The notes: generated from the letters alone by a model not told the origin. 64,000 nucleotides of DNA from an uncultured Alphaproteobacteria bacterium (GCA_963760455.1 CAVXDM010000040.1:20015-84014); one strand, 5' to 3'. Shown: positions 5,636 through 61,621, numbered from the stretch's first letter. Translations and numbers: made by a program.

Positions 5636-5690
5636 CGCGCCGCCGGCTAGCGAGGCGCGGGCCTCGCCGGAAAGCGGCTTCCGGGCGCGC

Positions 5691-13937: not shown

Positions 13938-14279
13938 ATGCATATCCTGGTCCTGGAGGACGAGCCGCTGATCGCGGTGGATATCGCCGCGACCATCGCT
14001 GACGCCGGCTGGGACGTGGCCGGCCCGGTAGGCTCGATCCCAAAAGCGTTGCGACTGATAGATGAGAAGCGCTGCGAGGCCGCCATCCTGGATGCGAACC
14101 TTGGGGGCACAAGCGCGGCACCAGTTGCCGAGAGGTTGCTGGCGTGCGGCATCCCTTTCATTGTCTTGTCGGGATACAGCGACGAGCAGTTGCCGAGCCC
14201 GCTTTCAGGCGCGCCATTCCTCGCAAAGCCCTACGACCCGGACGATCTCGTCGCCCTTGTGCGCAGCCTTCGCAGGTAG
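13938..14279 (+). CDS. Single-domain response regulator (CheY-like receiver).
   Basis: MHILVLEDEPLIAVDIA...ILDANLGG...PFIVLSGY is the receiver-domain signature. There is no output domain. Confidence 0.75.
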   Translation: MHILVLEDEPLIAVDIAATIADAGWDVAGPVGSIPKALRLIDEKRCEAAILDANLGGTSAAPVAERLLACGIPFIVLSGYSDEQLPSPLSGAPFLAKPYDPDDLVALVRSLRR

Positions 14280-14377
14280 CGGTTAACAGCGTCCCCATCA
14301 GCCGCTTTGAGCGGCTCACACATAAGATCCCCGGCTTTGCCAGGGCACATTTGCTTTTCTCTAAGTTCTGGTTGCGG

Positions 14378-17444: not shown

Positions 17445-17446
17445 TT

Positions 17447-19857: not shown

Positions 19858-20126
19858 GCAGGCGCGCCTTTTTGGTTGCCTGACAGGCGCGTATCGCTAT
19901 GGCCGGGCTGGCATGACTGGTCCGGTCAAAGCGTTTTCTGCGGGCGGCGAGTGTGGCCGCTCAGCGCGATAGGACGCCTCAAGCCGCATCGGGAACGGTG
20001 CGGCATGCGTCGCTTGACGCAAACGGGAAGTGCTTGAGCGGAAAACAAATTCAAGATAAATTGCGATGTTCTGGCGGCCGGGGTATACGCCTTCAATTGG
20101 CGCCGGAAGGAGCTTTGACCGGCCTC

Positions 20127-22388: not shown

Positions 22389-22398
22389 GGAGCGAGCC

Positions 22399-37105: not shown

Positions 37106-37753
37106 TTAGTTCATGTTGCTGATGTAAGCGCAGACCGCTTCGATCTGCGAATGCGATAGTCTATGCTCGACGGGCGATTTTACTGCCGATGAACCTTCTC
37201 TCGCGTGCTCGTTGTTCACGATGGACCAAAGCGAGAGCACCTTCACGGCGTACGGATAGATCTGGCCTGCCACCCGGGGAACCATGCCTGAGCCCTTGCC
37301 TTCGGCGCCGTGACAGCTGGCACAAGCTGGAACGTTATCCTGGGGAACGCCCTCTTCATAGATCCTTCTTCCCGCGGGGACCAGATCTTGCGGTCCGGGG
37401 CCGGCGGGGGGAGGATTGAGCTTGGAAAAATGATCGAATACCTCGCCGCGCTTTTGCGGGTTCATGCTGGCTAAAGCAGGGGCCACGAAGGCATCGGTGG
37501 TGGCATTGTCACGCTTATGTTCAAGGATGACTTCCGCCTTGGCTTGAAGATAGGCGAAGGGCTGGCCTGCGAGCCGTGGCACCGGGTAGGCGCCCTGGAA
37601 GCCTTGGCCCTGCTGCCCGTGACAATCCTTGCAGTATCGGATCTTCGCCTCGACGGTTTGTTTGTCGCCGCTATCCTGCGCGCTGCTGGCGGCCGGGAAA
37701 ACAACCGCCAAAAGCCCCGCATATAGTGCTAATCGCAAGCCGGTATATTTCAT
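37106..37753 (-). CDS. Diheme cytochrome c4-family protein, periplasmic.
   Basis: A signal peptide followed by two CxxCH motifs (CKDCHG, CASCHG), each followed by a Met-containing distal segment. Confidence 0.8.
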   Translation of the reverse strand: MKYTGLRLALYAGLLAVVFPAASSAQDSGDKQTVEAKIRYCKDCHGQQGQGFQGAYPVPRLAGQPFAYLQAKAEVILEHKRDNATTDAFVAPALASMNPQKRGEVFDHFSKLNPPPAGPGPQDLVPAGRRIYEEGVPQDNVPACASCHGAEGKGSGMVPRVAGQIYPYAVKVLSLWSIVNNEHAREGSSAVKSPVEHRLSHSQIEAVCAYISNMN

Positions 37754-38114: not shown

Positions 38115-38128
38115 ATTGACATAAATCA
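38115..38128 (+). promoter_or_regulatory. FNR/FixK-type box TTGACATAAATCAA (TTGA-N6-TCAA) in the divergent region between the c4 gene and ctaB.
   Basis: Exact match to the anaerobox half-sites. It lies about 100 bp upstream of ctaB. A near-identical box lies upstream of the cyc2-like gene at 45901. Confidence 0.45.
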
Positions 38129-38228
38129 ACACGCACTTAGCGAAAACGCGACAATCTGACCCTTGAGGGCGTCAAAATGCCCCACCCGGTGAAGGAGCCG
38201 AGGAAAAGAAGAGGATTCGAGCGAAACT

Positions 38229-39164
38229 GTGGGGGGCACGATGGCCGAGGTGGTCAAGGTTGTAGCTGGCCGCGAGTCAGTTAAGCAGCGCGAAGGCATC
38301 GCAGCCCGTGTCCCCGATCATTTGGCACTGCTGAAGCCCCGCGTGATGTCGCTGGTCGTATTCACCGGAGGCGTCGGAATGGCTGCCGCACCCGGACATA
38401 TCGATTTCGCACATGCGGTGGCGACGCTTGTTTGCATGGCCGGAGGGGCCGGCGGCTGCGGCGCGCTCAACATGTGGTACGACGCCGATATCGACGGCAT
38501 CATGCAAAGGACGGCGGGCCGGCCCATTCCGGCCAACAGGGTCGCGGCGCGCGAGGCGCTTATCGCCGGAGCGCTGCTTTGCGTTCTGTCGGTCCTGACG
38601 CTCGGGCTGCTGGTCAACCTCGCTGCCGCGGCGTTCCTTGCCCTCACCATCGCCATCTATGTGCCGTTCTACACCATGTTCCTGAAGCGCCGCACCGCGC
38701 AGAACATCGTTCTTGGCGGCGCCGCTGGCGCCTTGCCGCCGGTTATCGGCTGGGCTGCCGTGACCGGAAGCGCAGGTCTCGGCGCCTTGTCGTTATTCCT
38801 CATCATCTTTCTCTGGACGCCGCCGCATTTCTGGGCGCTCGCGATCTGCCGCTCCACCGACTACGAGCGGGCGAACATCCCGATGCTGCCGGTGATCGTA
38901 GGGCCTCAAGAGACGGCCCGCCAGATACTCATCTACTCTGTGGTGCTCGTTGCGGCTTCTTTCTTGCCTGCGCTGCTTGGGCTTGGGGGCATCGTCTACA
39001 CGGCCTTGGCTGCCGTACTGGGCGCGATCTTCGTGCTCCGGGCGTTCGCCGTCCAGCGGGCACACGAAAAGGAAAGCCGCAACAAGGCGGCATATAGACT
39101 GTTCGGCTTCTCCATTTTCTACATGTTCGCATTGTTCGTCGCGCTGCTGGCCACCGCCCTTTGA
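38229..39164 (+). CDS. ctaB: Protoheme IX farnesyltransferase (heme O synthase).
   Basis: Intact ORF of UbiA-family polytopic topology with the CyoE/CtaB signature. Confidence 0.85.
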   Translation: MGGTMAEVVKVVAGRESVKQREGIAARVPDHLALLKPRVMSLVVFTGGVGMAAAPGHIDFAHAVATLVCMAGGAGGCGALNMWYDADIDGIMQRTAGRPIPANRVAAREALIAGALLCVLSVLTLGLLVNLAAAAFLALTIAIYVPFYTMFLKRRTAQNIVLGGAAGALPPVIGWAAVTGSAGLGALSLFLIIFLWTPPHFWALAICRSTDYERANIPMLPVIVGPQETARQILIYSVVLVAASFLPALLGLGGIVYTALAAVLGAIFVLRAFAVQRAHEKESRNKAAYRLFGFSIFYMFALFVALLATAL

Positions 39165-39327: not shown

Positions 39328-40092
39328 ATGTCTACACATGCAGATACACATGGCCATGCCCATCATTGGGAGTGGAGCTGGGCGCCAGCCGCGATTTCGC
39401 TCGCGGCTTTGTGCTTCACCCTCGGATTTACATTGTTCTTCGTTTACGGCGCTACGATGCCTGCGATTGTCTGCGCGGGCCTCATGGTGCCGCTTATCCT
39501 CGCCGGGATTGCCAAGTGGATGAGCGAACATGGGCAGGCGACCGTGCCCGCGTTGAACAGCCTCGGATTGGCCCTGTTCATCTTCGGTGAAATCCTGATC
39601 TTCCTGGGCCTCTTCGCGGCTTACTGGACGCTGCGGGTTTCTACCGGCGCGGCTGACCAGCCCTGGCCACCAGCGGGCACGCCCGAGATCAACCATGTGC
39701 TGCCGCTGATTATGACGGCGATCCTGGTTACGTCGAGCCTTACCTACCATCAGGCGGAAAAGGCGTATGAGGAAGGCCACGGCGGTTTCACCTTCTGGGT
39801 GCTTATCACGCTTGTTCTTGGCATCGCCTTCGTTAGCTGCACCGGCTACGAGTATACCAATCTGTGGCATGAAGGCTTCAAGCCCGGCACGAACCAGTTT
39901 TCGACGCCCTTCTACGTGCTGACCGGCTTCCACGGCACGCACGTGATTGTTGGGCTCGTGGCGTTCATTTCGGTCCTGTTCGGCGTGTGGTCCGGCAAGG
40001 CGCACAAGTCGCTGGTTAAATTGGCCGGCGTTTACTGGCACTTCGTCGACATCGTGTGGTTCTTCGTCGCCTCTCAGGTCTACTTCTGGTAG
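39328..40092 (+). CDS. coxC: Cytochrome c oxidase subunit III.
   Basis: Intact 254-aa ORF, heme-copper oxidase subunit III family (HHWEWSW..., ...YWHFVDIVWFFV). Confidence 0.85.
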   Translation: MSTHADTHGHAHHWEWSWAPAAISLAALCFTLGFTLFFVYGATMPAIVCAGLMVPLILAGIAKWMSEHGQATVPALNSLGLALFIFGEILIFLGLFAAYWTLRVSTGAADQPWPPAGTPEINHVLPLIMTAILVTSSLTYHQAEKAYEEGHGGFTFWVLITLVLGIAFVSCTGYEYTNLWHEGFKPGTNQFSTPFYVLTGFHGTHVIVGLVAFISVLFGVWSGKAHKSLVKLAGVYWHFVDIVWFFVASQVYFW

Positions 40093-40115: not shown

Positions 40116-40979
40116 ATGGGCAGGGTTTCCTCCAAATTGGCCGCTTATGTGGTGGCAGCGCTTGCGGGATGGGCAAGCGCTGGACCCGCCGGCGCCCAAT
40201 GGTGGCACCCGCCCGTCTCCGATATCGATCCCAGGCTCATGTACATCGACGAGCAGGGTGTTTTGGGCAACAAGATCGACCCTAACACTCAGCTCGTCGA
40301 CGATCAGGGCAGGATGTTCCGCTGGGAGGAGATGCTCGGAAAGCCGTTCATCCTGGTGCTATCGTATTACACCTGCGATGGAAGCTGCTCCGCCATCAAC
40401 GGCGCGCTCGCCGGCCTCCTGAAGGACGTGAAGGCAATGAAGCCGGGGGAGGATTTCAAGATCCTCACTGTGTCCTTCGACCATCATGACACGCAGCAAA
40501 CGACGGTAGCATTCAAGAAGCACTTGAGCCTGCCGGCGAACTTAGCAAGTGCGTGGACGCTTGCGACCTTCAAGAGCGAGGAAGACCTGAAGAAGCAGAC
40601 CGCTCGAGTGGGCTTTAAGTTCTTCTGGTCGCCACAGGATAAATCCTTCGTTCATCCAGGAGTTTTTCTGTTCTTCTCGCCAGAGGGTAGACTGAGCCGC
40701 GTTTTGTATCAGCAAGACGCTGGCCCGCGCGACGTGGAGCTAGCGCTCCTCGACGCTAATATCGACCATATCAAGGCCACCGAGGTCAGCAATCTGCTGT
40801 TAACACTTTGTTACAGCTACAATTTCAAAGATGGCAAGTATCAGCTCAACATACCGTTGTATGTCGGGGCTGGGGCATTGCTCTTTGGGTTTCTGACCTT
40901 ATCCGGTTCTTTGATCTTCTATAAAGTAAGAAGGAAGGGGAGAGTTATGAAAGGGGCAAATCATGCGCAAATGGCGTAA
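40116..40979 (+). CDS. SCO1/SenC-family thioredoxin-fold copper chaperone, with a C-terminal TM anchor.
   Basis: FILVLSYYTCDGSCSAI is a CxxxC motif within a thioredoxin-like fold. It sits between coxC and coxB. Confidence 0.65.
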   Translation: MGRVSSKLAAYVVAALAGWASAGPAGAQWWHPPVSDIDPRLMYIDEQGVLGNKIDPNTQLVDDQGRMFRWEEMLGKPFILVLSYYTCDGSCSAINGALAGLLKDVKAMKPGEDFKILTVSFDHHDTQQTTVAFKKHLSLPANLASAWTLATFKSEEDLKKQTARVGFKFFWSPQDKSFVHPGVFLFFSPEGRLSRVLYQQDAGPRDVELALLDANIDHIKATEVSNLLLTLCYSYNFKDGKYQLNIPLYVGAGALLFGFLTLSGSLIFYKVRRKGRVMKGANHAQMA

Positions 40980-41712
40980 TAGGCTGGTATTGGGCTCGCT
41001 GGCCCTGCTGCCGGCAAGTCTTCCGGCGCTGGCTGCGGAGAGCAAAATCCTCAGCCCGACGCATATGTGGAACGAGATCTGGACGGAAGTCCTGTACGAC
41101 CTGCTGCTGATCGGCGTGCCGTTCGGCTTGGCCGCGCTCTACATGATGATCCGCTACCGGGCGAAATCGCCGGGTCAGGTCGGCGAGGCAGTGAACCTCA
41201 GCCCAGCAGCCGTGTGGGGATGGATACTTATCCCTTGTGCATTGTTCCTGGCCGACGACCTCTTGCTGTTCGGTAAGGGCTGGACGCTTTGGAACGTACA
41301 GCGCGTTGTGCCGCAAAATGCCGTCGAAGTGAAGGTAACGGGCCATCAATGGTACTTCGACTTCGACTACGGCAATGGCGTCACCGATAGCGAGCTGGTT
41401 GTCGAGGTTGGCAAGCCTGTAGTGCTGCGCATGGCCTCCGACGACGTGATCCACTCGTTCGGCTTGACCGAGTACCGGCTGAAGGAAGACCTGATCCCTG
41501 GCCGTATTACTTACTTGTGGTTCCTCCCGGACGCACCGAAAGAGACCCAGGTCGATTGCATGGAGTTCTGCGGTACCGGCCATTCGCAAATGGCGACGAA
41601 GGTCCGCGCGCTTCCAACCGCCGATTACCAGGCTTGGCTTGGCAAGCATAAGAGTGCGTCCGCTAGCGATCTGAAATTCGCAAGCCAGTCCGATGGAACG
41701 GCGAGCAAGTAG
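40963..41712 (+). CDS. coxB: Cytochrome c oxidase subunit II (CuA, no fused cytochrome c domain).
   Basis: A signal peptide plus 2 TM helices, then a cupredoxin domain with the CuA ligands H...CMEFCGTGHSQM. Confidence 0.85.
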   Translation: MRKWRNRLVLGSLALLPASLPALAAESKILSPTHMWNEIWTEVLYDLLLIGVPFGLAALYMMIRYRAKSPGQVGEAVNLSPAAVWGWILIPCALFLADDLLLFGKGWTLWNVQRVVPQNAVEVKVTGHQWYFDFDYGNGVTDSELVVEVGKPVVLRMASDDVIHSFGLTEYRLKEDLIPGRITYLWFLPDAPKETQVDCMEFCGTGHSQMATKVRALPTADYQAWLGKHKSASASDLKFASQSDGTASK

Positions 41713-41730: not shown

Positions 41731-43401
41731 ATGACGGCAGCTTCTTATAGCGACGCGCCAGCCCACTCCGGAGGGGGCATTGGAGCGTGGGTATTTACGA
41801 CGGACCATAAACGCGTCGGCATTCTCTATCTTATCGGTTCCATGGCTGCTTTTGTTGTGGCCGGCCTTATGGCGATCGGCATCCGGATCGAGCAGTTCTC
41901 GCCTGGCGAGTTTGGCGTGATGCAGTATTTCGTCGGCGACATCGGTAAGCAGATGACGACGGGCGATGCCTATAACACCGCGCTCTACTTCCACGGAGCC
42001 GCGATGATCCTGGGCTTCCTAATCCCGGGGCTCACGGGCTTCGCCGCGAACTATCTGGTTCCGACGATGATCGGCGCCAAGGACGTGGCCTTCCCGCGCA
42101 TCAACGCTCTGAGCGTCTGGCTGTTCTGGTGCGGCATCATCCTGGCACTCCTGACCTTCGTCATCCCGGACAAGCCGGACGTGATGTGGACGGGCTATCC
42201 GCCATATTCGATCAAGACGGCGGGCAACACCGCGCTCTACGTCTTTACCGTGCATCTGATCGGTTTCTCGTCGATCCTGGGCGCCGTGAACTTCATCACG
42301 ACGATCGTCTATATGCGCGCTCCTGGCATGGGCTGGAACCAGCTCAACATGTTCGTGTGGAGCATCCTGACGGGTCTGACCATTCAGCTCATCTTCGTTC
42401 CGATCCTTGCGGCCGCGGTTACGCTCCTGCTGCTCGACAAGTATGTTGGCACGGGCTTCTTCGACTCGTCGAGAGGCGGCGACCCGCTGCTCTATGAGAA
42501 CCTGTTCTGGTTCTACTCGCATCCTGCCGTGTACGTTATCTTCCTCCCCGCGATGGGCCTCGTATACGACATCGTGGCCACGATGGCGAAGAAGAACATC
42601 TTCAACTACAAGGCAGCGGTCTATGGCGGCATGTGCGGCCTGGTCGTGATCTCTGGCGAAGTCTGGATCCACCATCTCTACGTTGCCGGCATGCCGAACT
42701 GGCTGCGCATCGGCATGACCATGACGACGCTGTTGATCTCGCTGCCTGTGGGCCTGATGGTGCTGTCCCTTTGGGGCACGCTTTATAAGGGCGCCATCAC
42801 CTACAACGTGGCGATGCTCTATGCCGGCCTCTGCTTCGTGCTGCTGCTGTTCGGCGGTCTCACGGGCATTCCGCTCGCATTGGTGTCGATGACGGTGCAT
42901 TTTGCCCGGACCTCGTTCGTGCATGCGCACTTCCACTTCATCATGGCCTTGTTCGCTGCCTATGCGCTGTTCGGGTCGGTCTACTTCTGGTTCCCGGCCA
43001 TGACCGGCCGCACGGCCGACAACGCTGTGTCCAGGCTCGCGTTCTGGTTCAACCTCGTAGGCACCCAGCTAACCTTCTGGCCGCTGTTCATCATCGGCGT
43101 GGACGGTATGCCCCGGCGCTATTGGGATTACTCGGCCGAAGTTGTGGGCGCGGCGCGTTCGGAAAACTGGACGTTCTACCACCACCTCTCGACCTACGGC
43201 GCCGCGATCACCGCGGTGGGTATCTTCCTGATGATTACCGGCTGGGTTTATTCGGCCTTCTGGGGCGCGAAGGTCGGCAGGAATCCATGGGGCTCCAAGT
43301 CGCTTGAGTGGACCCATGCCAGCTATCCGATCGGACCCGGCAACTTCGACGAACCCGTTGTTGTGATCGCCGAGTGGACGCCCTACAATTACGCGAAGTA
43401 A
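41731..43401 (+). CDS. coxA: Cytochrome c oxidase subunit I (heme-copper oxidase, A-type).
   Basis: Intact 556-aa ORF with 12 TM helices and conserved His ligands (WFYSHPAVYVIFLP, ...HHLYVAGM). Confidence 0.9.
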   Translation: MTAASYSDAPAHSGGGIGAWVFTTDHKRVGILYLIGSMAAFVVAGLMAIGIRIEQFSPGEFGVMQYFVGDIGKQMTTGDAYNTALYFHGAAMILGFLIPGLTGFAANYLVPTMIGAKDVAFPRINALSVWLFWCGIILALLTFVIPDKPDVMWTGYPPYSIKTAGNTALYVFTVHLIGFSSILGAVNFITTIVYMRAPGMGWNQLNMFVWSILTGLTIQLIFVPILAAAVTLLLLDKYVGTGFFDSSRGGDPLLYENLFWFYSHPAVYVIFLPAMGLVYDIVATMAKKNIFNYKAAVYGGMCGLVVISGEVWIHHLYVAGMPNWLRIGMTMTTLLISLPVGLMVLSLWGTLYKGAITYNVAMLYAGLCFVLLLFGGLTGIPLALVSMTVHFARTSFVHAHFHFIMALFAAYALFGSVYFWFPAMTGRTADNAVSRLAFWFNLVGTQLTFWPLFIIGVDGMPRRYWDYSAEVVGAARSENWTFYHHLSTYGAAITAVGIFLMITGWVYSAFWGAKVGRNPWGSKSLEWTHASYPIGPGNFDEPVVVIAEWTPYNYAK

Positions 43402-43472: not shown

Positions 43473-43595
43473 CATGGCTCAACCCGAGCACAACAAGAAG
43501 CCCCGCAACCTGACCTTACCTTTGGTCATCTTGCTAGGCATATCCGCGCTCATGTATGTGAGCTTCGTCTACAAAGTCATCAAATTCGGCCCATA
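43473..43595 (+). CDS. 40-aa single-TM peptide (oxidase small subunit IV-like).
   Basis: MAQPEHNKKPRNLTLPLVILLGISALMYVSFVYKVIKFGP, with RBS AGAGGAA. It lies directly downstream of coxA. Confidence 0.5.
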
Positions 43596-43611
43596 GAGCA
43601 GTCCAGAGTAC

Positions 43612-44046
43612 ATGATCGAGATCCATACCCTTCCGCATATCCTCGCCGTCATCAACGTCGCCACCGTTATCGTGCTGCTGGCCAGCTACTGGTTTATCCA
43701 GCACGGCGATAGAGAACGCCATCGCGCCGGCATGCTGACCGCGGCCGTTCTTGGCGTCGCGTTCCTGGCGATCTACTTCACCTATCACTTCAACGCTGGG
43801 CTCGCGAAGTTCGGCGGCCATGGCACGGTCCGGCCCATTTACTTCACGCTGCTGCTGGTTCATATCCTTCTGGCGCTGGTTGTGGCCGCGCTGGTGCCGC
43901 TGACGTTGAAGCGGGGCCTGGGCGGCAGCATCGCGGCGCATCGCAAAGTCGCGAGCTGGGCGCTGCCGGTCTGGCTGTTCGTGTCGGTTTCCGGCGTCGT
44001 CGTCTATGTGATGGCAGTCCACATCTATCCCTATACGGGGGCGTAG
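43612..44046 (+). CDS. DUF420-family membrane protein (oxidase-cluster associated).
   Basis: 144-aa ORF with 4 TM helices. Its composition matches the DUF420/YozB proteins found in caa3 operons. Confidence 0.65.
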   Translation: MIEIHTLPHILAVINVATVIVLLASYWFIQHGDRERHRAGMLTAAVLGVAFLAIYFTYHFNAGLAKFGGHGTVRPIYFTLLLVHILLALVVAALVPLTLKRGLGGSIAAHRKVASWALPVWLFVSVSGVVVYVMAVHIYPYTGA

Positions 44047-44054
44047 AAGAACCG

Positions 44055-45505
44055 ATGACCGGCATATCTGGCACCGCCGCGCCGCGCGGCCTTGTTTCCG
44101 GGGCAACCAGCACGGCAATTGCCGGCATTCCCCAGGAGGAGCTTAGAGCGTGGGCGGCGCTGGCGATAGGATCGCTGGCTCTGGCGGGCATCATGGCGGT
44201 GCTGGTCGCGGTGTCGCGCATCCCGGGCATTCAGGCTTTCAGCCTTTGGCCGCTGGACTTCTTCCCCAAGGGCCTGGTGATCCATGTCATCTTCTCGTTA
44301 GTCGTCTGGTTCCTGACGGTTTTCGCGCTGCTGGTCTCCATGGCAACCGCGCAGGTGGCGGGGGAGGGCGTGCGTTTCGCCGCGCTTGGCGGTGTTGGGG
44401 CTATTGCCGCCGTATCCGCATACCCTTTGCTGTTTTTCACCGCGTTCGATCACTCAGCCGCGCCGTCGCTCAATAATTACGTGCCCGTCATCCAGCACCG
44501 CGCCTATTACGACGGCCTGGCGATCCTGGCGCTGGGCATAGCCTTGCCGGTGGCGCGCCTCCTGGCGAACATCCCTATGCGCTGGCGGCAGTGGAAAGAA
44601 ATGCCGCCGCTAGCCCAGGCGATGAGCGCCTGCTCGATCATTTATCTCATCGCGCTGATCTGCTTCGGCATCGCCACCTTCAAGTCTTTCGGCGCCACGC
44701 CCTCGAAGGAGCTGAACGAAGTGCTCTTCTGGGGCGGCGGCCACATGCTGCAGTTCCTATTCTGCCTGCTTCTGGTGACGGGTTGGTTCGTGCTCGCCCG
44801 CTCGACTTCTGGGCGAAGGCGTGATCGGAATCGATAGTTTGCGCGCCGCGGTGCTGATCCTCGTGGCGTTCGCGCTGCCCGGGCTCGTTTTCTTCTACAA
44901 GTTCGATATGAACGGACCGGTGTTCCGGGAGGCCTTCAGCAAACTTCAGTTCGTCATGGCGCTGCCAACGCTGATTGTTGGGGTGCCGATCCTGTTCGGA
45001 ATGGCGCGCGAGAAGGAGAAGGGGCCGCTGCCTTGGCAGAATCCCGGCTTCGTGGCGCTGGCTCTCTCCATGATCGTGTTCGGCGTTGGCGGCGTGATGG
45101 GCAATCTCATCTCCGGTTCCGACACGCGCACGCCCGCGCACTATCACGGCGTCATTACCGGGGTCAGCTTGGCCGCGGTCGGGCTGCTTTTGAGCTACTG
45201 CCTGCCGGCGCTCTGGCCGCGCGCCGCGAAATAGCCGCCTCCTGCGCATTCAAATCTGGCTCTACGGCGGCGGCCAGCTCGCGGCCTGCGTCGGCATGTT
45301 CCTCGCTGGCTCGCATGGCGCGCCGCGCAAGACGCCCACGAGCCTTGCCGCGCTCACGGACGGCGCCGTCATCGGCATGTTCCTGAACGGGATCGGAGGC
45401 CTGGTCGCGATCGCAGGTGGCGTGATGCTCGTCGTTACGGTCATTCGGGCCCTGTGGCCCAAACAGGCCGGAGCAGGTGCGCAGGGCAGCGCCGGAGCGA
45501 TTTAA
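44055..45505 (+). CDS. Polytopic membrane protein of about 480 aa and unknown function (two frame breaks near 44810 and 45235).
   Basis: Three consecutive frames carry a continuous TM-rich sequence (...LFWGGGHMLQF..., ...HYHGVITGVSLAAVG..., ...IQIWLYGGGQLAACVGMFLAG...). There are about 12 predicted helices and conserved His residues. Confidence 0.5.
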
Positions 45506-45900
45506 GCGTAAAGTGGCGGGCTATCGCTGCCGGGCCGATGCGTCTGCCGGCGGCACGGCGCTAGGCGCGCGCCTGCGCAAACCGCGTGCCAGACCGTAGC
45601 GGTTCCGCCATCGCCGCCTTGGGCAGAAAGCCAAGTTGCGGCAGTTGAGCAGAGTTCCCAAAAGTGGCCTTCCCGGTTCTGCGACAAAATCTGCCAAAAC
45701 AAAAGACTCTAAGCGGGCATTCGTTGGCCTGCTAAGGAATGTCTGCTTAAGTTCCTGACAAGCTATAAACATCGGCTTAAGCGGAAGGCGCGAAGTCTGC
45801 CGCCGCGAAGATGTTTCGTTTCCGCCAACAGTAAACGATCCCGAATCTAGCTGCCTGTGACCGGATATTGCGCTGCTGTGCGCGAGAAGCCACAGGTGGA

Positions 45901-45914
45901 TTGACATATATCAA
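45901..45914 (+). promoter_or_regulatory. FNR/FixK-type box TTGACATATATCAA (TTGA-N6-TCAA), about 90-135 bp upstream of the cyc2-like gene.
   Basis: Exact match to the anaerobox half-sites. It is nearly identical to the box at 38115. Confidence 0.45.
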
Positions 45915-46047
45915 AATTCGCGCACCCAGGCCGGGCTAAGTTGTCGCAGGGTAGGTTGGCAGCCGGGCAAAGCCAACTGTATAAATTGGGGGGGATTCCG
46001 ATGAGCGTGCAGCAACGTTCGCGCGTGCAAGCCGTGCTGGCAAATAT

Positions 46048-47477
46048 TTGCGCAGACCGGCTCCTGGCGCAATGCTACCCCTCGATTTGTGGCTTTCGCG
46101 TGGCGCGCTCGCAGCAGCCTCGCTTGCAGCGGTCAGTTTCATCGACGTTCCCACGGCCTCGGCGGTTCCTTCCTTACGCGCGCCAGACCGGGCAGCCCTG
46201 CGCCACCTGCCACACCGCCTTTCCCGAGCTGACGCCCTACGGCCGCCAATTCAAGCTCATGGGCTACACGTCGGGCGGCACACGCTGCAACGATGGCTCC
46301 GCGAAGTCGGACGAGACGCAAGTGCCGCTCGCGCTCATGTCGCTTGCCGACCACCAGACCATGGTCAAGAATTCGGCCAACCAGGCCGCCATGAGGGGCA
46401 GGCGTCCAACATCAGCAACGACGCCTGGTATCCTGGTCAGCAGAGCGTGTTCCTCGCCGGGCAGCTTTATTGCGATGTCGGTGCATTCGCTCAGGCGACC
46501 TACGACCCCGTCGGGCAATGCGTTCACTTGGGACAACGTCGATATCCGCTACGCAAAGACCGGCGTAATCAACGGCACGAGTATCGTTTACGGCATTACA
46601 GCCAATAACAATCCAACCGTCCAGGATGTGTGGAATACCGTCCCCGCTTGGGTCTTCCCCTTTATGGACACAGCGGTTGGTCCGGCGCCGGCCAATGGCA
46701 CCATGCTCGGTACAAGCTCCTACGGCCAGCAAGTTGGCGGCGTCGGTGCTTATGTCTGGATTAACAGTAGCATCTATGCCGAGATTTCGGCGTATGGCAG
46801 CCTGTCCCCGCGCATGCTCACTAATTGGAACGGGGGATACGATCCTGCCGCGTCGCGGTTAGATGGATCTGCCCCGTATTGGCGGCTGGCCTACGAAAAG
46901 ACCTGGGACAAGAATTCGCTCATGTTCGGCACCTTCGGCATGTACGCCAATCAGCGTACCGCCGGAGAGACTCACGCCAGCCGGAGTAAGCGATCCCACT
47001 CTGAATATCGGCGTGGACACGCAGTACCAGTGGATCGGCGAGCAGCATGCCGTCACGGTGCGGGCAGCCTATATCTGGCAGAGAAAGAAAAACAACGTAG
47101 AGATGGATGTCAACTCAGGGTTGAGCGCCGATAATCTTTACGACAATCTCAACGACTTCAATATATCTGCCAGCTACATTTATGACCGCAAGATTAGCTT
47201 TACTGCTGGCTATTTCAATACCTGGGGCACAACCGATATGGGCCTGTACGGCACGACCAATGGCTCGCCGGACTCCAGGTATTATAAATTCGACCTGGCC
47301 TATCTGCCCTTCATGAACGGCGGTCCCGACTTGTGGCCTTGGTTCAACGCCAGGATCGGCATCATGTACACTCACTACGACAAGTTCGATGGCACCTGGA
47401 ATGATGTCAACAGCCAGGTTGGCCTGAAGGCGGGCGGCAACGACCAGGTCTTCCTCTACACTTGGCTGATGTTCTAG
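46048..47477 (+). CDS. Cyc2-like fused monoheme cytochrome c / outer-membrane beta-barrel porin (candidate extracellular electron-transfer / iron oxidase). Four or more frame breaks.
   Basis: A signal-like N-terminus (MRRPAPGAMLPLDLWLSRGALAAASLAAVSF...TASA) is followed by a single CxxCH (QPCATCHTAFPELTPYGRQFKLMGY). Then come about 420 aa of alternating, aromatic-rich beta-strand sequence (SGNAFTWDNVDIRY, ...YVWINSSIYAEISAYG, ...ISFTAGYFNTWG). The protein ends in the porin-type aromatic terminus ...YTWLMF. Total length is about 475 aa. Confidence 0.6.
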
Positions 47478-47551
47478 CTGAAAAGCACACGAAGGAAATC
47501 TTCGGCGATGGCGCCGTAACAAGAAACGCATCTGGGGGCGGAGCATAGATC

Positions 47552-48187
47552 ATGAGGACCGGGGGATTAAGAGTAGCGTTGCAGGCGGCGGTCTTGGCGA
47601 TCTTCTTGCCAACCGCGGTCCAGGCAGCCGATATCGACGAAAAGATTGGCTATTGCCTCAACTGCCACGGCAGGCATCTCGAAGGATTTATCGGCTACTA
47701 CATCGCTCCTAGGCTCGCCGGGCAGCAAGCCGTGTATCTTGAGAACCAACTCGCGGCAATCGGCAAGCACACGCGCGACGACCCTAATGCCAAGCGGTTC
47801 ATGTGGCCGGTGCTGACGCATGGCGCGCCGCCTCTGTGGCCCAAGATCGCAAAGCGGCTGAGCGAGATGGACGCTCCTCCCGCTGCCGATGGCCCCAAGC
47901 GCCTTGTCGAGGCAGGCCGGAAGCTCTTTCAGGAAGGCGTTCCCGACGACAACATTCCCGCCTGCGCGGCGTGCCATGGCGAGGATGGCCACGGCAGCGA
48001 CCAGGTTCCGCGCGTCGCTGGCCAATTATATTCATACACCGTTGAAGCCCTGGGCGACTGGGTCAACGGCCATCGGGCGAAGGACCCAGTGTCTCCTGGA
48101 GATCCGAATACCATGCAGCCGATCGCCAAGAGCTTGAAGAAAGACCAGATCAGGGCCGTCGCCGCCTACCTCAGCTATCAGAAATAG
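47552..48187 (+). CDS. Diheme cytochrome c4-family protein (Cyc1-like), periplasmic.
   Basis: A signal peptide followed by CLNCHG and CAACHG. Confidence 0.8.
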   Translation: MRTGGLRVALQAAVLAIFLPTAVQAADIDEKIGYCLNCHGRHLEGFIGYYIAPRLAGQQAVYLENQLAAIGKHTRDDPNAKRFMWPVLTHGAPPLWPKIAKRLSEMDAPPAADGPKRLVEAGRKLFQEGVPDDNIPACAACHGEDGHGSDQVPRVAGQLYSYTVEALGDWVNGHRAKDPVSPGDPNTMQPIAKSLKKDQIRAVAAYLSYQK

Positions 48188-48217
48188 AGTGTCCCTGTCC
48201 AACCTGAAGCACCTAGT

Positions 48218-48904
48218 TTGAAAGCCAAGATTATGAAGCTCTTCAAGTTGACATTAGCGGTCCTGGCGATTGCGCCGCTTCTCGCGGTGGCGGGCAACGC
48301 GGAATCCCATAGGAACTGCCGGTCGCATCCGGGCGGGGAATGGCAAATCGATCCCGCCGAATATGTGGTGCGGAATTGCGCCTTTTGCCACGGGCCGGCC
48401 TTGGAAGGAAAGGCTGTCGCGCCCCGGCTTGCCGGACAGCACCAAGACTACATCGTCTACCAGTTGGAGCGGTTCAAGAATAAGTCCCGCAACAATCCGT
48501 TCTCCTTGAAATTCATGTCGCACGTCGCGGCGAAGGTGCTGCCGGATTCCTACTGCGAACTCGGCGCCTATATCTCAGGGATGCCCGCAGAGGCGGCCAA
48601 GGACGGCAACAAGGAGAACGTGGCCGCGGGCGAAGACATCTTTCTGCACGGGAAGCCGTCGAACAACCTTCCCGCCTGCCAGTTTTGCCACGGCCCCGAG
48701 GCGCAGGGCACCGGGAAATTCCCGCGGCTTGGCGGTCAGTCCTACTTTTATCTGAAGCGGCGGCTTGAGCAGTGGGCGGAAGGGTATGCCGTGGTTTCCC
48801 CGCACATGCCGGGCATCGTCGGCTTGATGACGCCCGAAGAGATCGAAGCGGTTGCCTCTTTCTTGAGCTTCCAGGAAGCGGCCCCGTCACGCGGAGAGTT
48901 CTAA
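48218..48904 (+). CDS. Diheme cytochrome c4-family protein (second paralog), periplasmic.
   Basis: A signal peptide followed by CAFCHG and CQFCHG. Confidence 0.8.
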   Translation: MKAKIMKLFKLTLAVLAIAPLLAVAGNAESHRNCRSHPGGEWQIDPAEYVVRNCAFCHGPALEGKAVAPRLAGQHQDYIVYQLERFKNKSRNNPFSLKFMSHVAAKVLPDSYCELGAYISGMPAEAAKDGNKENVAAGEDIFLHGKPSNNLPACQFCHGPEAQGTGKFPRLGGQSYFYLKRRLEQWAEGYAVVSPHMPGIVGLMTPEEIEAVASFLSFQEAAPSRGEF

Positions 48905-49707: not shown

Positions 49708-50058
49708 TTGACCGTTACCATTTATCACAACCCCGCCTGCGGGACGTCGCGGAACACCCTTGCCACGATCCGGGAGAAGGCGGGTGAACCCGAAATCGTC
49801 GAGTATTTGAAGACGCCGCCGAGCCGCCAGAGGCTGGCGGAACTGCTGGCCCTCATGAAGATGACGCCGCGCGAGCTGCTGCGTCAGAGGGGGACGCCTT
49901 ATGCGGAGCTTGGCCTTGGCGACCCGAAATGGACGGACGATGAGCTGGTCGGTTTCATGGTGGCCCATCCAATCCTCATCGAGCGCCCGATTGTGGTGAC
50001 GGAGAAGGGTGCCAGGCTTTGCCGCCCGGCGGAGAAGGTGCTGGAAATCCTGCCGTAG
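49708..50058 (+). CDS. arsC: Arsenate reductase, glutaredoxin-coupled ArsC/Spx family (TTG start).
   Basis: TVTIYHNPACGTSRNTLATI carries the catalytic Cys in the canonical position. Confidence 0.8.
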   Translation: MTVTIYHNPACGTSRNTLATIREKAGEPEIVEYLKTPPSRQRLAELLALMKMTPRELLRQRGTPYAELGLGDPKWTDDELVGFMVAHPILIERPIVVTEKGARLCRPAEKVLEILP

Positions 50059-50107
50059 CCGGCGGTCCGGCCGGTGGCCCTCAGCGTCAAGCAACGGGGG
50101 CTCCCGC

Positions 50108-50623
50108 TCAGGCTTGCGGCGCGCCTGCGAAAGCGAAGCGGGCCTTGATCCGCTCGAAAAGCTGATCGCGCACCGCCCGGTAGGCGCCCAGGATTTGCTC
50201 GCGGTTGCCGGCGGCGGCCGAGGGGTCGACGGTCGGCCAGTATTCGACATCGGCGGCCATGGTGCGCGTCAGTTCGAGGGCCTTGTGATGAGCCTCAGGT
50301 GCCAGCGTCACGATGAGATCGAAGGAGGTGTCGTCAAGGTCCTCGATGGCGATGGGCCGATGCTTGGCGATGTCGATGCCGATTTCGTCCATCGCCGCGA
50401 CCGCGAACGGGTCGGTCTCGCCCGGGCGCACCCCGGCGGACTGCACGTAGATTCGCTTGCCGGCCAGGAAGCGCAAAATTGCGGCGGCCATCGGCGAGCG
50501 GATCGCGTTCATATTGCAGGCGAAAAGCACGGCATGCGGTTGCTCAACGAACTTCCCTCCCTCGGGGGATGCCTCCAGCGAGAGACGGTCTTGAAATGGC
50601 AATGGAAGCTCAGCGCCGCTCAA
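50108..50623 (-). CDS. Low-molecular-weight protein-tyrosine-phosphatase / LMW-PTP-type arsenate reductase.
   Basis: P-loop VLFACNMNAIRSPMAAAIL (CX5R). Confidence 0.75.
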   Translation of the reverse strand: MSGAELPLPFQDRLSLEASPEGGKFVEQPHAVLFACNMNAIRSPMAAAILRFLAGKRIYVQSAGVRPGETDPFAVAAMDEIGIDIAKHRPIAIEDLDDTSFDLIVTLAPEAHHKALELTRTMAADVEYWPTVDPSAAAGNREQILGAYRAVRDQLFERIKARFAFAGAPQA

Positions 50624-53277: not shown

Positions 53278-54526
53278 TTAGCGCTTGAGGGCGGGCGAAA
53301 GCCTGCCCTTCTTGCTGCCGCCGCGCTGGAACAGGCCTGCGATCTCCACATGCGCCGAGAACCGGAACTGGTCGAACGCGGCCAGGCGCGTGAGGCGGAA
53401 CCCGCCGCCGGTCAGGATCGCGGCGTCGCGGGCGAAACTTGCCGGATTGCAAGAAAGCATGACTACGGTGGCCGCCTTGGAGGACGCCAGTGCGCGCGTC
53501 TGCGCCTCTGCGCCTTCGCGTGGCGGATCGACGATGACGCTCGCGAACTTGTTCAGCTCCAGCGGCCCGAGCGGGTTCCGGTAGAGGTCGCGGCGGATCG
53601 CGGAGACGGCTTTCAGGCCCTTGGCCCGCTTGGCTGCGGTGGCCAGCGCGGCCACTGCGCCTCGATTTTCCTCGTAAGCCGTGACCGGCGCCAGCCTTGC
53701 CGCCGGGAAGGTGAAGGCGCCCAGCCCCGCGAAGAGATCGCAAACCGGGCCGGCCGGCTTTGCGTTGCCCAGCGCGCTCAGCACCCAATCCGCCATGTCC
53801 CGCTCGCAAGGCTCGACGGCCTGCAGGAACGCGCCAAGCGGCAGCATTACCCCGATGCCGCCGCATGAAACGAATGGAGCCGCGGCAAGCAGCACGAGAT
53901 CCCTGTTCCATGTGGCCCGGATGACGCCGGCCGCGCCAAGGATATCGATCACCGCCGGGTTGGCGGAAGCCCGCAATGCGGGGCCGTCGATGGCACAATC
54001 GAGGCCGTTGGCCGCCGCCGTGATGGAGACTTTCGCCTCGCTCTTGGCCGGCAGGACGGCGCGCAACACCGCTCGCAAGTGCGGCAGGGCTTGCACGATC
54101 TGCGGCAGCAGGACCGGGCACTCCTCCAGATCCACCACGTCGTGGGTGCGCGCGGCGTTGTATCCGAGGACGAGGTTGCCGTCTGCATTGCGGGCAGTGA
54201 AGGTGGCGCGGCGGCGGCTCGACACCGGATAGCTCCGCAGCGGCTCGATGGGCGCACCGATCCCGGCCCGCGCCAGCGCGGACGTCACAAGCCCTTGTTT
54301 CCACGCCTATATACGGGGACTCTGCCCAATGCTGCAGGGCGCATCCCCCGCAAGTACCGAAGTGTTTGCAGAGCGGTTCGGCGCGTTCGGGCGACGGCGC
54401 CTCGATTTTCCGGAGCACAGGCTTTTGCCCCAGAAACTCGACGCGGACTTGCTCTCCCGGCAAAGTGAAGGGGACAAAGTGCTTCTCACCGTGGATATGC
54501 GCGATGCCATGCCCCTGCGCGCCCAT
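53278..54526 (-). CDS. rlmD: 23S rRNA (uracil-5)-methyltransferase RlmD/RumA-like (TRAM domain plus 4Fe-4S plus class-I MTase). One frame break near 54290.
   Basis: The N-terminus in the 54526 frame has a TRAM domain and CKHFGTCGGCALQH. The methyltransferase core is in the 54288 frame (VCDLFAGLGAFTFP, ...VIVDPPREG, ...VMLSCNPASFARD). Confidence 0.75.
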
Positions 54527-54574
54527 GGACTTCGATCGTTGCCGGGCTCGGGAGCCGTATCGCTTGGGGGAGGG

Positions 54575-61350: not shown

Positions 61351-61621
61351 CGTCCGTCAACGGTTCATACGCCGCCGTTTCGCGCCCGGGAAACTGCATT
61401 GCCTTGCTGGGGTGCCTGCGCCGGTCCTGATATATCTTTGCGGGTATATTCGCTTTCGATAGGCGATTTCCATGCGCGTATTTTTTGTGGCTATCGCGCT
61501 GGCGTTTGTCTCCCGCGGCGCTGCTTTCGCAGACCGTGTGCCGCGGGGTGGCCGGATTTCCGCCTTTTTGCCCGTGCTAACATCCACTTACTTTGCGGGC
61601 ATTCTGGGGAAGGGGAGTTGC

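Follow-up and report, generated by a model that had tools for sequence, protein, structure and literature searches.

Does the Cyc2-like gene in this 64,000-nucleotide stretch of DNA from an uncultured alphaproteobacterium (hereafter the window) encode a working outer-membrane cytochrome, and where would its electrons go? The locus is probably best explained by an intact Cyc2-family outer-membrane gene whose product would pass electrons via c4 cytochromes to an aa3-type oxidase, under shared low-oxygen control. The host is an uncultured Rhodomicrobium-related member of the Hyphomicrobiales; the NadA encoded in the window is 83–89% identical to NadA of Rhodomicrobium sp. MAGs. A preliminary description had proposed a Rhizobiales-like genome with hydrogenase and serine-cycle features, and HypD/HypE and a glycerate-kinase-type gene are indeed seen in the window. 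The features of the locus are as follows.

37106–37753, minus strand: diheme c4-type cytochrome, 215 aa, CKDCH and CASCH (Pfam Cytochrom_C), divergent from ctaB
38116–38129, unstranded: FNR/FixK-type box TTGACATAAATCAA, 113 bp upstream of ctaB
38229–39164, plus strand: ctaB, heme O synthase, UbiA family (open reading frame; the L002 orthologue is PF01040 UbiA)
39328–40092, plus strand: coxC (COX3; open reading frame; the orthologue is PF00510 COX3)
40116–40979, plus strand: SCO1/SenC-like copper chaperone with a CDGSC motif and a C-terminal membrane helix (Pfam SCO1-SenC, E 6e-5)
40963–41712, plus strand: coxB (COX2), CuA site HSFG...CMEFCGTGHSQM (Pfam COX2; TIGR02866, E 3e-38)
41731–43401, plus strand: coxA, A-family heme-copper oxidase subunit I, 556 aa (TIGR02891, E 2e-148)
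43474–43596, plus strand: small single-helix membrane protein, 40 aa (a 40-aa gene lies at this position in L028, L031 and L032)
43612–44046, plus strand: DUF420 membrane protein, CtaM oxidase assembly factor family (Pfam DUF420, E 2e-36)
44055–45505, plus strand: degenerate COX1-like paralogue, 482 aa when corrected, broken by +1 insertions at 44807 and 45213
45901–45914, unstranded: FNR/FixK-type box TTGACATATATCAA, 100 bp upstream of the cyc2 start codon
46001–47477, plus strand: predicted Cyc2-family fused cytochrome-porin, 489 aa once inserted bases are removed (from reconstruction, criteria, model and homology)
47552–48187, plus strand: Cyc1-like diheme cytochrome c4, 211 aa, CLNCH and CAACH (Pfam Cytochrom_C)
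48218–48904, plus strand: Cyc1-like diheme cytochrome c4, 228 aa, CAFCH and CQFCH (Pfam Cytochrom_C)

Reconstruction of the Cyc2 gene

The raw Cyc2 gene changes reading frame five times, in agreement with the several frame breaks first described. By comparison with three relatives of ~86% DNA identity, we called six insertion events: single bases at 46053, 46075, 46176, 46512 and 46972, and two bases at 46393 (46393–46394). Deleting these 7 bases yields an uninterrupted 489-aa open reading frame. Its stop at 47477 (...YTWLMF*, with a C-terminal phenylalanine) is the end originally given for the gene, but the start had been set at 46048 and moves to the ATG at 46001 (MSVQQRS...), where intact homologues begin; the TTG at 46048 is a shifted-frame artefact and was rejected.

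Together with those in the COX1-like gene, eight frame-breaking insertions fall within 2.2 kb (44807–46972), and none are found in the 6.8 kb of cox genes upstream or the 1.9 kb of c4 genes downstream. Such clustering would be expected of genuine gene decay, as would the finding that the Cyc2 gene is broken somewhere in each of three near-identical assemblies. The positions of the breaks differ among these assemblies, and several observations speak against decay. Two sister contigs (98–99% identity) have none of the eight insertions, carry different private indels of their own and both retain an intact COX1-like gene. A three-way majority consensus of the near-identical assemblies is an open 485-aa Cyc2 reading frame, and the dN/dS of the corrected gene (0.11–0.17) equals that of its neighbours and of intact-versus-intact pairs. 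Over the 20.6 kb compared, short indels private to the window comprise 14 insertions versus 1 deletion, a bias that points to a technical rather than a biological origin. Pfam domains are also split in at least four other, unrelated genes of the window, and related long-read-style assemblies contain fragmentary genes of a similar kind. Because the insertions are missing from the sister contigs, dN/dS is normal and other genes are split as well, we attribute the frame breaks to consensus errors private to this assembly rather than to gene decay.

The predicted protein carries the sequence features of Cyc2

Published criteria describe Cyc2 as a protein of at least 365 aa with a signal peptide, a single CXXCH in the mature N-terminal region, the motif AXPXFAR[Q/K][T/Y] just before CXXCH and PXL 4 residues after it, and a 16-strand outer-membrane porin like OprO/OprP (Keffer et al. 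2021, PMC8406198). The corrected sequence supports the presence of every one of these features in the window protein. The signal peptide, single CxxCH and porin-like barrel noted at the outset are all recovered in the corrected frame, the barrel by way of a homologue model. The signal peptide, judged from simple sequence features, has a positive n-region (SR) and a hydrophobic core, LAAASLAAVSFI, with a mean hydropathy of 2.2, followed by PTASA|VPSF. The predicted cleavage position coincides with that of Acidithiobacillus Cyc2 (AWA|LPSF). The signature reads AVPSFARQT-GQP-CATCH-TAF-PEL, where PEL represents PxL and where the +1 insertion at 46176 splits the AVPSFARQT motif in the raw window. 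CATCH, 13 residues past the predicted cleavage, is the sole CxxCH in the corrected frame, and exactly one CxxCH occurs in all 70 aligned homologues. A PX[FY][AST]R[QK][TY]-type motif and a C-terminal phenylalanine are each found in 69/70 homologues. Since the window copy is frame-broken, the barrel was modelled on P0001, a 90%-identical intact homologue. The AlphaFold model (pLDDT 79.7, pTM 0.78) features 16 strands and a helix at residues 27–46, in the signal-peptide region.

In a BLASTP comparison, residues 40–489 align with residues 16–495 of the A. ferrivorans rus-operon Cyc2 at 29% identity (E 7e-47); this reference is the orthologue from a sister species of A. ferrooxidans and distinct from the assayed protein. 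A profile of 70 homologues matches six Acidithiobacillus-type Cyc2 proteins end to end (E 1e-59 to 1e-68, computed at whole-library database size). We therefore assign 46001–47477 as a full-length homologue and true relative of Acidithiobacillus Cyc2. Since its similarity to the Cluster 2 type spans the full length, the protein may belong in Cluster 2 or nearby. The identity of a mere 29% to the characterised Cyc2 type counts against reading the protein as an iron oxidase, and those who reconstructed the Cyc2 phylogeny caution that homologues distant from characterised members are of uncertain function (PMC8406198).

Three diheme cytochromes resemble Cyc1

The two periplasmic, Cyc1-like diheme c4 cytochromes originally placed after the Cyc2 gene are borne out: the first c4 gene starts 75 bp past the cyc2 stop and the second comes next. 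The 211-aa protein is 37% identical to A. ferrivorans Cyc1 (E 3e-35) and the 228-aa protein 34% (E 8e-30). For both, the best solved match is 1H1O (E 2e-27 and 2e-21, respectively), ranking ahead of the Pseudomonas c4 1ETP. The third c4 gene, described as upstream, is present, but its position needs amending, as it lies on the minus strand and diverges from ctaB. Its 215-aa product is 28% identical to A. ferrivorans Cyc1 (E 7e-27) and 43% to the 211-aa protein, and a homologous gene lies at the same place in L002 and L028. All three proteins have two CxxCH motifs and a signal peptide, and the matches support their identification as Cyc1 homologues (E 1e-27 to 1e-35).

A divergent A-family oxidase, putatively of the aa3 type, lies upstream

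All five genes reported upstream of cyc2 (ctaB, coxC, sco, coxB and coxA) are found. They do not adjoin it immediately: after coxA, the small open reading frame, the DUF420 gene, the COX1-like gene and a 495-bp spacer between the latter and cyc2 intervene. The start of the SCO-like gene was fixed by 287-aa orthologues in relatives. CoxB (249 aa) consists of a COX2 domain alone, is 30% identical to the rus-operon CoxB, and contains the CuA motif CMEFCGTGHSQM, read directly in its sequence; it has no cytochrome c domain, as previously described, and no CxxCH was found in it. CoxA is 31% identical to its rus-operon counterpart (E 3e-69). It scores 495 bits against TIGR02891, below the cut-off of 671 bits, and is therefore a divergent member of the family. 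COX1, COX2, COX3 and ctaB are present in the window and ctaA (heme A synthase) is not, so the label aa3-type is provisional. The 40-aa membrane protein has no family match and, from its position, is possibly a subunit IV analogue. An intact 481-aa orthologue of the COX1-like paralogue matches Pfam COX1 over positions 6–435 (64 bits), and in an alignment the paralogue lacks the CuB HH pair and the first heme-a histidine.

FNR/FixK-type boxes precede both gene groups

The pattern TTGAY-N4-RTCAA has just two matches in the 64-kb window (0.055 expected), one before ctaB and one before cyc2. The ctaB-upstream box is also present in L002, L003 and L028; the cyc2-upstream box lies at −100 in L001–L003, at −96 in L024/L025, at −123 in L028 and at −84 in L030. 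Box density upstream of Cyc2-family members is 0.94 per kb versus 0.032 per kb elsewhere (~29-fold). A promoter and terminator scan of the window was at chance level, so transcription units had to be inferred. The layout suggests that the cox genes form one unit and cyc2-c4-c4 another, both headed by an FNR-type box of their own, rather than a single operon of the rus type. The boxes are directly visible in the sequence, from which we infer FNR/FixK-type regulation; they could also mediate repression or bind another regulator of the CRP/FNR family. Oxidases of the aa3 type are usually low-affinity, high-oxygen enzymes, and an FNR-activated aa3 oxidase would be unusual. Conserved boxes before both cyc2 and ctaB are a point that newly emerged from this analysis.

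The link to an oxidase is confined to a narrow clade

The Cyc2 family comprises 4832 representatives at 50% clustering (E ≤ 1e-3), mostly from soil and peat metagenomes. A c4 or HiPIP gene adjoins the Cyc2 homologue in 43 of 50 metagenome loci with enough flank, and cox genes occur at one of ten metagenome loci with long flanks. Relatives as distant as 70% protein identity retain the full oxidase-Cyc2-c4-c4 arrangement. In a Rhodomicrobium sp. MAG (L030), cyc2-c4-c4 stands without nearby oxidase genes, as it does in L024/L025, in which EB_dh and NapC/NirT genes follow; other Cyc2 relatives adjoin HiPIP, NapC/NirT or nothing. The oxidase-Cyc2 link is thus limited to a narrow clade, a further point that newly emerged, and the neighbours conserved across the family are c4 or HiPIP. 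Given this confinement and the differing neighbours of other relatives, the c4 proteins may deliver electrons elsewhere.

A proposed electron route and its alternatives

Homology and gene context allow a mechanism to be proposed, including iron oxidation by the window Cyc2. The protein would be exported by a Sec signal peptide and consist of a short c-type domain with one heme at the N-terminus, fused to a porin barrel of 16 strands. Its single heme would accept electrons at the outer membrane from Fe(II) or from a different reductant, either extracellular or reachable through the pore, and hand them to the two presumably co-transcribed periplasmic Cyc1-like diheme c4 cytochromes. These would donate electrons to CuA in the adjacent aa3-type oxidase, which would then reduce O2, and the chain would have no rusticyanin step. 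Because both units carry a conserved FNR/FixK-type box, they are probably induced together when oxygen is low. Low oxygen at near-neutral pH is the condition under which Fe(II) persists.

An unlikely but not negligible alternative is that Cyc2 and the two c4 proteins form a general entry point for extracellular electrons whose main sink is not the aa3 oxidase, the adjacency of the cox operon in this clade being secondary. In a phototroph of the Rhodomicrobium type, electrons from the c4 proteins could then enter the photosynthetic reaction centre when oxygen is absent (photoferrotrophy) or supply reverse electron flow via bc1. The oxidase-free trios of L030 and L024/L025, the single cox-bearing locus among ten long metagenome loci and the 495-bp spacer with its own box would all be in line with such a role. 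An FNR-type box would also suit anoxic induction, and purple bacteria express photosynthesis genes under anoxia. Moreover, photoferrotrophy by means of PioAB is known from Rhodomicrobium vannielii (PMC5566968). Yet the window shows no sign of phototrophy, its CoxB lacks a cytochrome c domain and would need a soluble donor, and the nearest counterpart of its c4 proteins is Cyc1, which supplies electrons to aa3 in Acidithiobacillus. Conservation of the full arrangement, with a box on both units, down to 70% protein identity in the window's clade likewise argues for a functional link to the oxidase.

More doubtful still is the idea that this Cyc2-family protein does not oxidise iron and instead exchanges electrons with humic substances, Mn or soluble shuttles, or discharges respiratory electrons outwards when O2 is limiting. 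Cyc2 homologues do occur in many bacteria not known to oxidise iron (PMC5566968; PMC8406198), the family is very large with a mostly soil and peat metagenome distribution, and FNR-type control would suit a role at scarce oxygen. Against this stand the full-length homology to the biochemically characterised Acidithiobacillus type and the position of the unit beside a terminal oxidase in the window's clade. Its partners, c4 or HiPIP, are high-potential carriers typical of iron-oxidising chains, not multiheme reductase-type cytochromes. Finally, that the Cyc2 gene and its COX1-like neighbour are real pseudogenes, inactivated by several frameshifts, is highly improbable on the evidence from sister contigs, consensus, dN/dS, indel bias and other split genes given above.

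Comparison with known systems

Acidithiobacillus is among the closest known parallels. Like Acidithiobacillus Cyc2, the window protein is ~490 aa long, contains a porin barrel of 16 strands and ends in an aromatic residue; cleavage falls just before A-x-P-S-F-A-R-Q-T, the spacing to the single CxxCH and PxL is identical, and a Cyc1-type c4 gene comes directly next. The two differ at 71% of aligned positions. In the window's clade a pair of cysteines (C95/C156 in P0001), missing from Acidithiobacillus Cyc2, is invariant, and a long non-conserved N-terminal extension lies ahead of the signal peptide. Its host is a Rhodomicrobium-like alphaproteobacterium and, so far as known, no extreme acidophile, unlike Acidithiobacillus. 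An FNR-type box precedes the window cyc2, whereas none was found in the A. ferrivorans locus.

The rus operon (cyc2-cyc1-cup-coxBACD-rus-cta genes) begins with cyc2 in Acidithiobacillus. As in that operon, Cyc2, a Cyc1-like c4, an aa3-type oxidase whose CoxB has no cytochrome domain, and ctaB lie within 11 kb (PMC10654088). In a tblastn search with A. ferrivorans proteins, rusticyanin (Rus) and Cup had no match in the 64-kb window, and rusticyanin was found in 0/80 related metagenome loci. With Cyc2, Cyc1 homologues, a CoxB free of any cytochrome domain and neither Rus nor Cup, the earlier phrase 'cyc2-cyc1-cox logic without rusticyanin' is fair as to components; the likeness does not extend to a single rus-like operon. 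The order is inverted, with cox first and cyc2 and two c4 genes last, in probably two transcription units with an FNR-type box on each. Genes for a SCO-like protein, a DUF420 protein, a degenerate COX1 paralogue and a third c4, divergently oriented, are additional to the rus-operon set, and the window's CoxA and CoxB share only ~30% identity with those encoded in the rus operon.

The literature already describes Hyphomicrobiales homologues of Cyc2 and Cyc1 as well as rus-like COX clusters from soil bacteria. In Bradyrhizobium, also alphaproteobacterial, genes for Cyc2 homologues lie in clusters with those for periplasmic cytochromes c and/or HiPIP (PMC5566968), Hyphomicrobiales sequences directly neighbour AfCyc2 and AfCyc1 in similarity networks (PMC10654088), and soil bacteria have been described that carry versions of the Acidithiobacillus COX cluster containing c4 genes (bioRxiv 10.1101/2020.03.01.968255). 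We found no published report of Cyc2, two c4 genes, a complete aa3 operon and shared FNR-type boxes in a Rhodomicrobium-related bacterium. Compared with the Bradyrhizobium and other Hyphomicrobiales homologues, the window's clade has only c4 neighbours and no HiPIP.

In Cluster 1 organisms, the usual oxidase partner of Cyc2 is cbb3. The 'Cluster 1' Cyc2 of Mariprofundus ferrooxydans PV-1 and further neutrophilic iron oxidisers shares the architecture and N-terminal motif of the window protein (PMC8406198). Cluster 1 proteins reportedly have significant similarity to AfCyc2 at the N-terminus only (PMC5566968), whereas the window Cyc2 aligns with AfCyc2-type proteins over its full length.

The known iron-oxidation system of Rhodomicrobium vannielii is PioAB/MtoAB (PMC5566968), which gives this bacterial lineage an outer-membrane route for Fe(II) electrons. 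No multiheme cytochrome is encoded in the window, where only four open reading frames bear CxxCH. PioAB/MtoAB places a separate decaheme cytochrome in a 24–32-strand porin; in the window protein, by contrast, a single heme is predicted to be fused to a 16-strand porin.

Extent and reading frame of the cyc2 gene

Six-frame translation of the region from 45.9 to 47.5 kb revealed a single long coding region with five frame changes. Comparison by tblastn with P0001, an intact metagenome homologue, placed the start of the gene at the ATG at 46001 (MSVQQRS...) instead of the first-assigned TTG at 46048, and upheld its end at 47477. The features under study are:

37106-37753, minus strand, divergent c4 cytochrome
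38116, FNR/FixK-type box upstream of ctaB
44055-45505, plus strand, COX1-like paralogue
45901, FNR/FixK-type box upstream of cyc2, at the first coordinate of the region singled out in the preliminary description
46001-47477, plus strand, cyc2 (cytochrome-porin)
47552-48187, plus strand, first downstream c4 cytochrome (211 aa)
48218-48904, plus strand, second downstream c4 cytochrome (228 aa)

As a reference for the frame breaks, we used three metagenome relatives (L001-L003) whose DNA is ~86% identical to the window. In a DNA alignment with these, cyc2 of the window carries single-base insertions at 46053, 46075, 46176, 46512 and 46972 and a two-base insertion at 46393, and the COX1-like gene upstream of it carries single-base insertions at 44807 and 45213. 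Every frame break in the window consists of extra bases relative to the three relatives, and none lies in a homopolymer run. Deleting seven bases resolves the breaks in cyc2, yielding an open reading frame of 489 amino acids.

Origin of the frame breaks

Four agreeing lines of evidence indicate that the cyc2 frame breaks are assembly errors and not gene decay. Two sister contigs (L031 and L032) belong to the same project series but to other samples (ERZ25039477 and ERZ25039489); they are 98-99% identical to the window between 37.5 and 58.2 kb. All eight insertions in cyc2 and the COX1-like gene are missing from both, and each sister contig has other private indels: L031 has one extra base in the SCO-like gene, one in coxA and one at 47081 in cyc2, and L032 has a one-base deletion at 46362, a nine-base insertion at 47267 and a one-base deletion at 47412. 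The majority consensus of the three contigs contains an open 485-aa Cyc2 reading frame and an open COX1-like reading frame. Over the 20.6 kb compared, the private 1-2-nt indels of the window comprise 14 insertions and 1 deletion, a bias that argues for a technical origin. dN/dS of the corrected cyc2 against its orthologues is 0.11-0.17, equal to that of flanking genes and of pairs of intact genes, and a true pseudogene, genuinely inactivated in the organism, is very improbable.

Pfam domains elsewhere in the window are likewise split or truncated across neighbouring frames. This comparison, together with that of the sister contigs, replaced a frameshift count based on a GC3 frame plot, which was too noisy.

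Pfam domains affected by frame breaks elsewhere in the window
HypD and HypE, 4.6-6.8 kb, run together
AMP-binding, ~12.65 kb, broken between frames
DAO/DAO_C, ~16.6 kb, broken between frames
FAD_binding_4, ~18.7 kb, broken between frames
ThcOx/nitroreductase, ~23.1 kb, broken between frames

Window-wide, frame breaks or private single-base insertions fall at 4637-6838, 12184-13730, 15943-19169, 22331-23849 and 54306-54542, and gene calls from CAVXDM010000040.1 are best regarded as unpolished. The region 19953-23849 (plus strand) encodes a YcaO protein of 811 aa that begins with a winged-helix domain, followed by ThcOx and nitroreductase (SagB-type dehydrogenase) domains, a pairing typical of azoline/azole peptide-modification clusters. 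At 61472-63073 (plus strand) lies a gene for a 533-aa protein with TPR repeats and a C-terminal caspase (Peptidase_C14) domain.

The three otherwise near-identical contigs diverge sharply and locally in cyc2: nucleotide identity to L031 and L032 is 90-91% in the outer thirds of the gene (46001-46520 and 46961-47477), compared with 98.6-100% for flanking genes. This suggests either allelic replacement or recombination at a surface-exposed protein, or a mixed-strain consensus. The local divergence probably explains why errors pile up in cyc2, as mixed alleles could confuse consensus calling. In this assembly, insertion errors would cause the gene to be overlooked or labelled a pseudogene, so long-read MAG surveys of iron-cycling genes can undercount cyc2.

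Assignment to the Cyc2 family

Members of the Cyc2 family are defined by a signal peptide, a single CXXCH, the motif AXPXFAR[Q/K][T/Y] just upstream of it, PXL four residues downstream of it, a length of at least 365 aa and a 16-strand porin resembling OprO/OprP (Keffer et al., PMC8406198). After frame correction, the window protein reads ...GALAAASLAAVSFIDVPTASA followed by VPSFARQTGQPCATCHTAFPEL..., residues that agree with this definition, so the Cyc2 architecture originally proposed holds at the level of sequence. Using the hand-stitched translation as query, 4614 of 8000 scored candidates matched, with the 488-aa P0001 on top (89% identity over 98% of the query); clustering at 50% left 4832 homologue representatives at E <= 1e-3. 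Neither the window fragments nor the intact homologue matched a Pfam or NCBIfam model for the Cyc2-like protein, and a PDB sequence search with the family profile returned only a chance antibody match.

To obtain a named reference, species-representative genomes were scanned with a rusticyanin sequence verified by 100% tblastn matches, which led to Acidithiobacillus rus operons; the gene ~5.4-7 kb upstream of rusticyanin was taken as cyc2. The A. ferrivorans locus (L006) has the order cyc2 (495 aa), cyc1, cup, coxB, coxA, coxC, rus, matching the rus operon as published (PMC10654088). Over its whole length, the window protein can be aligned with A. ferrivorans Cyc2 (29% identity, E 7e-47), and six Acidithiobacillus-type Cyc2 proteins score E 1e-59 to 1e-68 against the profile of the window family at a database size of 1.8 billion. 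The full-length alignment and the profile scores place the window protein in one family with the acidophile Cyc2 that has been characterised, the likeness extending along the barrel.

A plain porin with a chance CxxCH was ruled out, the motif block being kept across 70 homologues, and a PioAB/MtoAB-type complex of porin and multiheme cytochrome was rejected because there is no multiheme cytochrome.

Neighbouring cytochromes and oxidase genes

Both proteins encoded downstream of cyc2 are diheme cytochromes, as described previously, each with two CxxCH motifs and a signal peptide; the divergent cytochrome has the same features. The three c4 cytochromes are 28-37% identical to Cyc1 (E 1e-27 to 1e-35). 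Among solved structures, 1H1O, the A. ferrooxidans c4, matches the two downstream proteins best, ahead of Pseudomonas c4.

The genes upstream of cyc2 are, in order, ctaB, COX3, an SCO-like chaperone (CDGSC), CoxB, CoxA, a 40-aa membrane protein, DUF420 and the 482-aa COX1-like protein. CoxB indeed has no cytochrome domain, and its CuA ligands are present. Neither rusticyanin nor Cup, the cupredoxin of the rus operon, was found in the window, which bears out the earlier reading of a rusticyanin-free locus. The host had been called Rhizobiales-like, correctly: the window NadA has 83-89% identity to its counterparts in several Rhodomicrobium sp. MAGs and 81% to the Rhodomicrobium sp. Az07 protein, and the named Cyc2 matches come from Rhodomicrobium sp. 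and Hyphomicrobiales MAGs.

The COX1-like paralogue, encoded after DUF420 in the cox operon, has a full-length match to Pfam COX1 and is conserved in all close relatives (481-484 aa). In the alignment, the HPxVY histidine is retained, and AHYH lines up with the heme-ligand motif AHFH; the first heme-a histidine is lost, as are the cross-linked tyrosine and the HH pair of CuB. Losing the HH pair and the heme-a histidine makes a role as a functional oxidase subunit unlikely; the protein could serve as a scaffold in assembly or bind heme in the membrane.

Conservation of the gene arrangement

The full order, c4(-) / ctaB-COX3-SCO-COX2-COX1-small-DUF420-COX1like / Cyc2-c4-c4, is also found in L002, L003, L028 (70% Cyc2 identity), L031, L032 and L033. 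Layouts in more distant relatives include c4-Cyc2-c4-c4-EB_dh-NapC/NirT, Cyc2-c4-c4 alone (in a Rhodomicrobium sp. MAG), Cyc2-HiPIP, and Cyc2 beside a longer cytochrome of the c type (421 aa) and a barrel protein resembling OmpA. In the first of these (L024/L025, a 69%-identical relative), Cyc2-c4-c4 is followed at 13002-15057 by a heme protein with an EB_dh domain and a tetraheme quinol dehydrogenase of the NapC/NirT type, which could give this conduit a connection to the quinone pool. The second c4 gene of the window is closely followed by genes for an ArsC-family protein and a low-molecular-weight phosphatase (49708-50623). ArsC occupies that place in L028, L031 and L032 too and so belongs to the conserved neighbourhood, though nothing obvious connects it with the Cyc2 cluster.

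We then considered 80 metagenome loci (L033-L112), mostly from soil or peat, with Cyc2 relatives at 37-82% identity. Fifty of these loci have 900 bp or more on each side; among them, c4 is adjacent in 28, HiPIP in 20 and at least one of the two in 43. HiPIP genes stand beside ~40%, mostly immediately upstream on the same strand, and c4 genes beside ~55%, mostly immediately downstream; some loci have both. Oxidase genes occur in one of the ten long-flank loci and rusticyanin in none of the 80 loci. The conserved core thus consists of Cyc2 and a periplasmic carrier of high potential, and the oxidase link is specific to the clade of the window.

Shared regulatory boxes

The FNR/FixK consensus TTGAY-N4-RTCAA has exactly two matches in the window, against 0.055 expected by chance: one 113 bp upstream of ctaB and one 100 bp upstream of the cyc2 ATG, both of the form TTGAC-N4-ATCAA. 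The cyc2 box is kept in relatives, at -100 in L001-L003, -96 in L024/L025, -123 in L028 and -84 in L030, as is the ctaB box. Of 72 upstream regions in the 80 loci, 21 contain boxes, a density of 0.94 per kb compared with 0.032 per kb elsewhere in those loci. This points to control by a CRP/FNR-family regulator, which would most simply mean low-oxygen induction. A crude regular-expression search found no gene for such a regulator in the window. A promoter and terminator scan performed at chance level, and operon boundaries were not set by it.

A model for electron transfer

Taken as a whole, the locus is probably best explained by a rusticyanin-free route from Fe(II) through Cyc2 and the c4 pair to the aa3-type oxidase. 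The outer-membrane mono-heme porin-cytochrome would accept electrons from Fe(II) and pass them to the two Cyc1-like c4 cytochromes, which would reduce CuA of the adjoining oxidase; the cox unit and the cyc2-c4-c4 unit would be co-induced at low oxygen. The analysis establishes family membership, fold, partner genes, synteny and the boxes, whereas substrate, direction of electron flow, the step from c4 to oxidase and the sense of regulation are inferred.

It is unlikely, though conceivable, that the c4 proteins instead supply a photosynthetic reaction centre or reverse electron flow. We also consider it improbable that the substrate is something other than iron or that the protein carries electrons outward.

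To our knowledge, iron oxidation in the Rhodomicrobium lineage is known solely as light-driven, through PioAB. A broader and still doubtful proposal is that Rhodomicrobium-related soil and peat bacteria also perform dark, O2-dependent iron oxidation of the Acidithiobacillus type (Cyc2 to c4 to aa3), rusticyanin-free and under an FNR/FixK-type low-oxygen switch, with the same control for about one-third of the very large soil Cyc2 family. If true, an FNR-boxed cyc2 in ordinary soils would signal iron oxidation under microaerobic conditions or the uptake of extracellular electrons.

Comparison with known systems

Cyc2 is the genetic marker most widely used for bacterial iron oxidation, yet its homologues number in the thousands and are mostly found in organisms not known to oxidise iron. 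The locus is a clean case of an Acidithiobacillus-type Cyc2 physically linked to carriers of the Cyc1 kind and to a terminal oxidase, with a low-oxygen regulatory box common to both units, in a lineage common in soils and peat; it offers a testable hypothesis of rusticyanin-free microaerobic iron oxidation. Hyphomicrobiales sequences have been reported as network neighbours of AfCyc2 and AfCyc1 (PMC10654088), a Bradyrhizobium Cyc2 as clustered with HiPIP and three cytochromes c (PMC5566968), and soil bacteria as carrying rus-like COX clusters that include c4 genes (bioRxiv 10.1101/2020.03.01.968255). In the Cyc2 literature on Rhodomicrobium, Hyphomicrobiales and FeGenie, we found no report of the particular arrangement seen here. 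The FNR-type boxes common to both units and the conservation of a degenerate COX1 paralogue are modestly new details.

Outside the heme motif, C95 and C156 of P0001 (window ~46285 and ~46470) are invariant in all 70 aligned homologues. This cysteine pair is missing from Acidithiobacillus Cyc2 and may form a clade-specific disulfide joining the cytochrome linker to the first barrel strands. Cluster 1 Cyc2 proteins are reported to resemble the acidophile Cyc2 at the N-terminus alone (PMC5566968), whereas the window protein resembles it along the barrel too.
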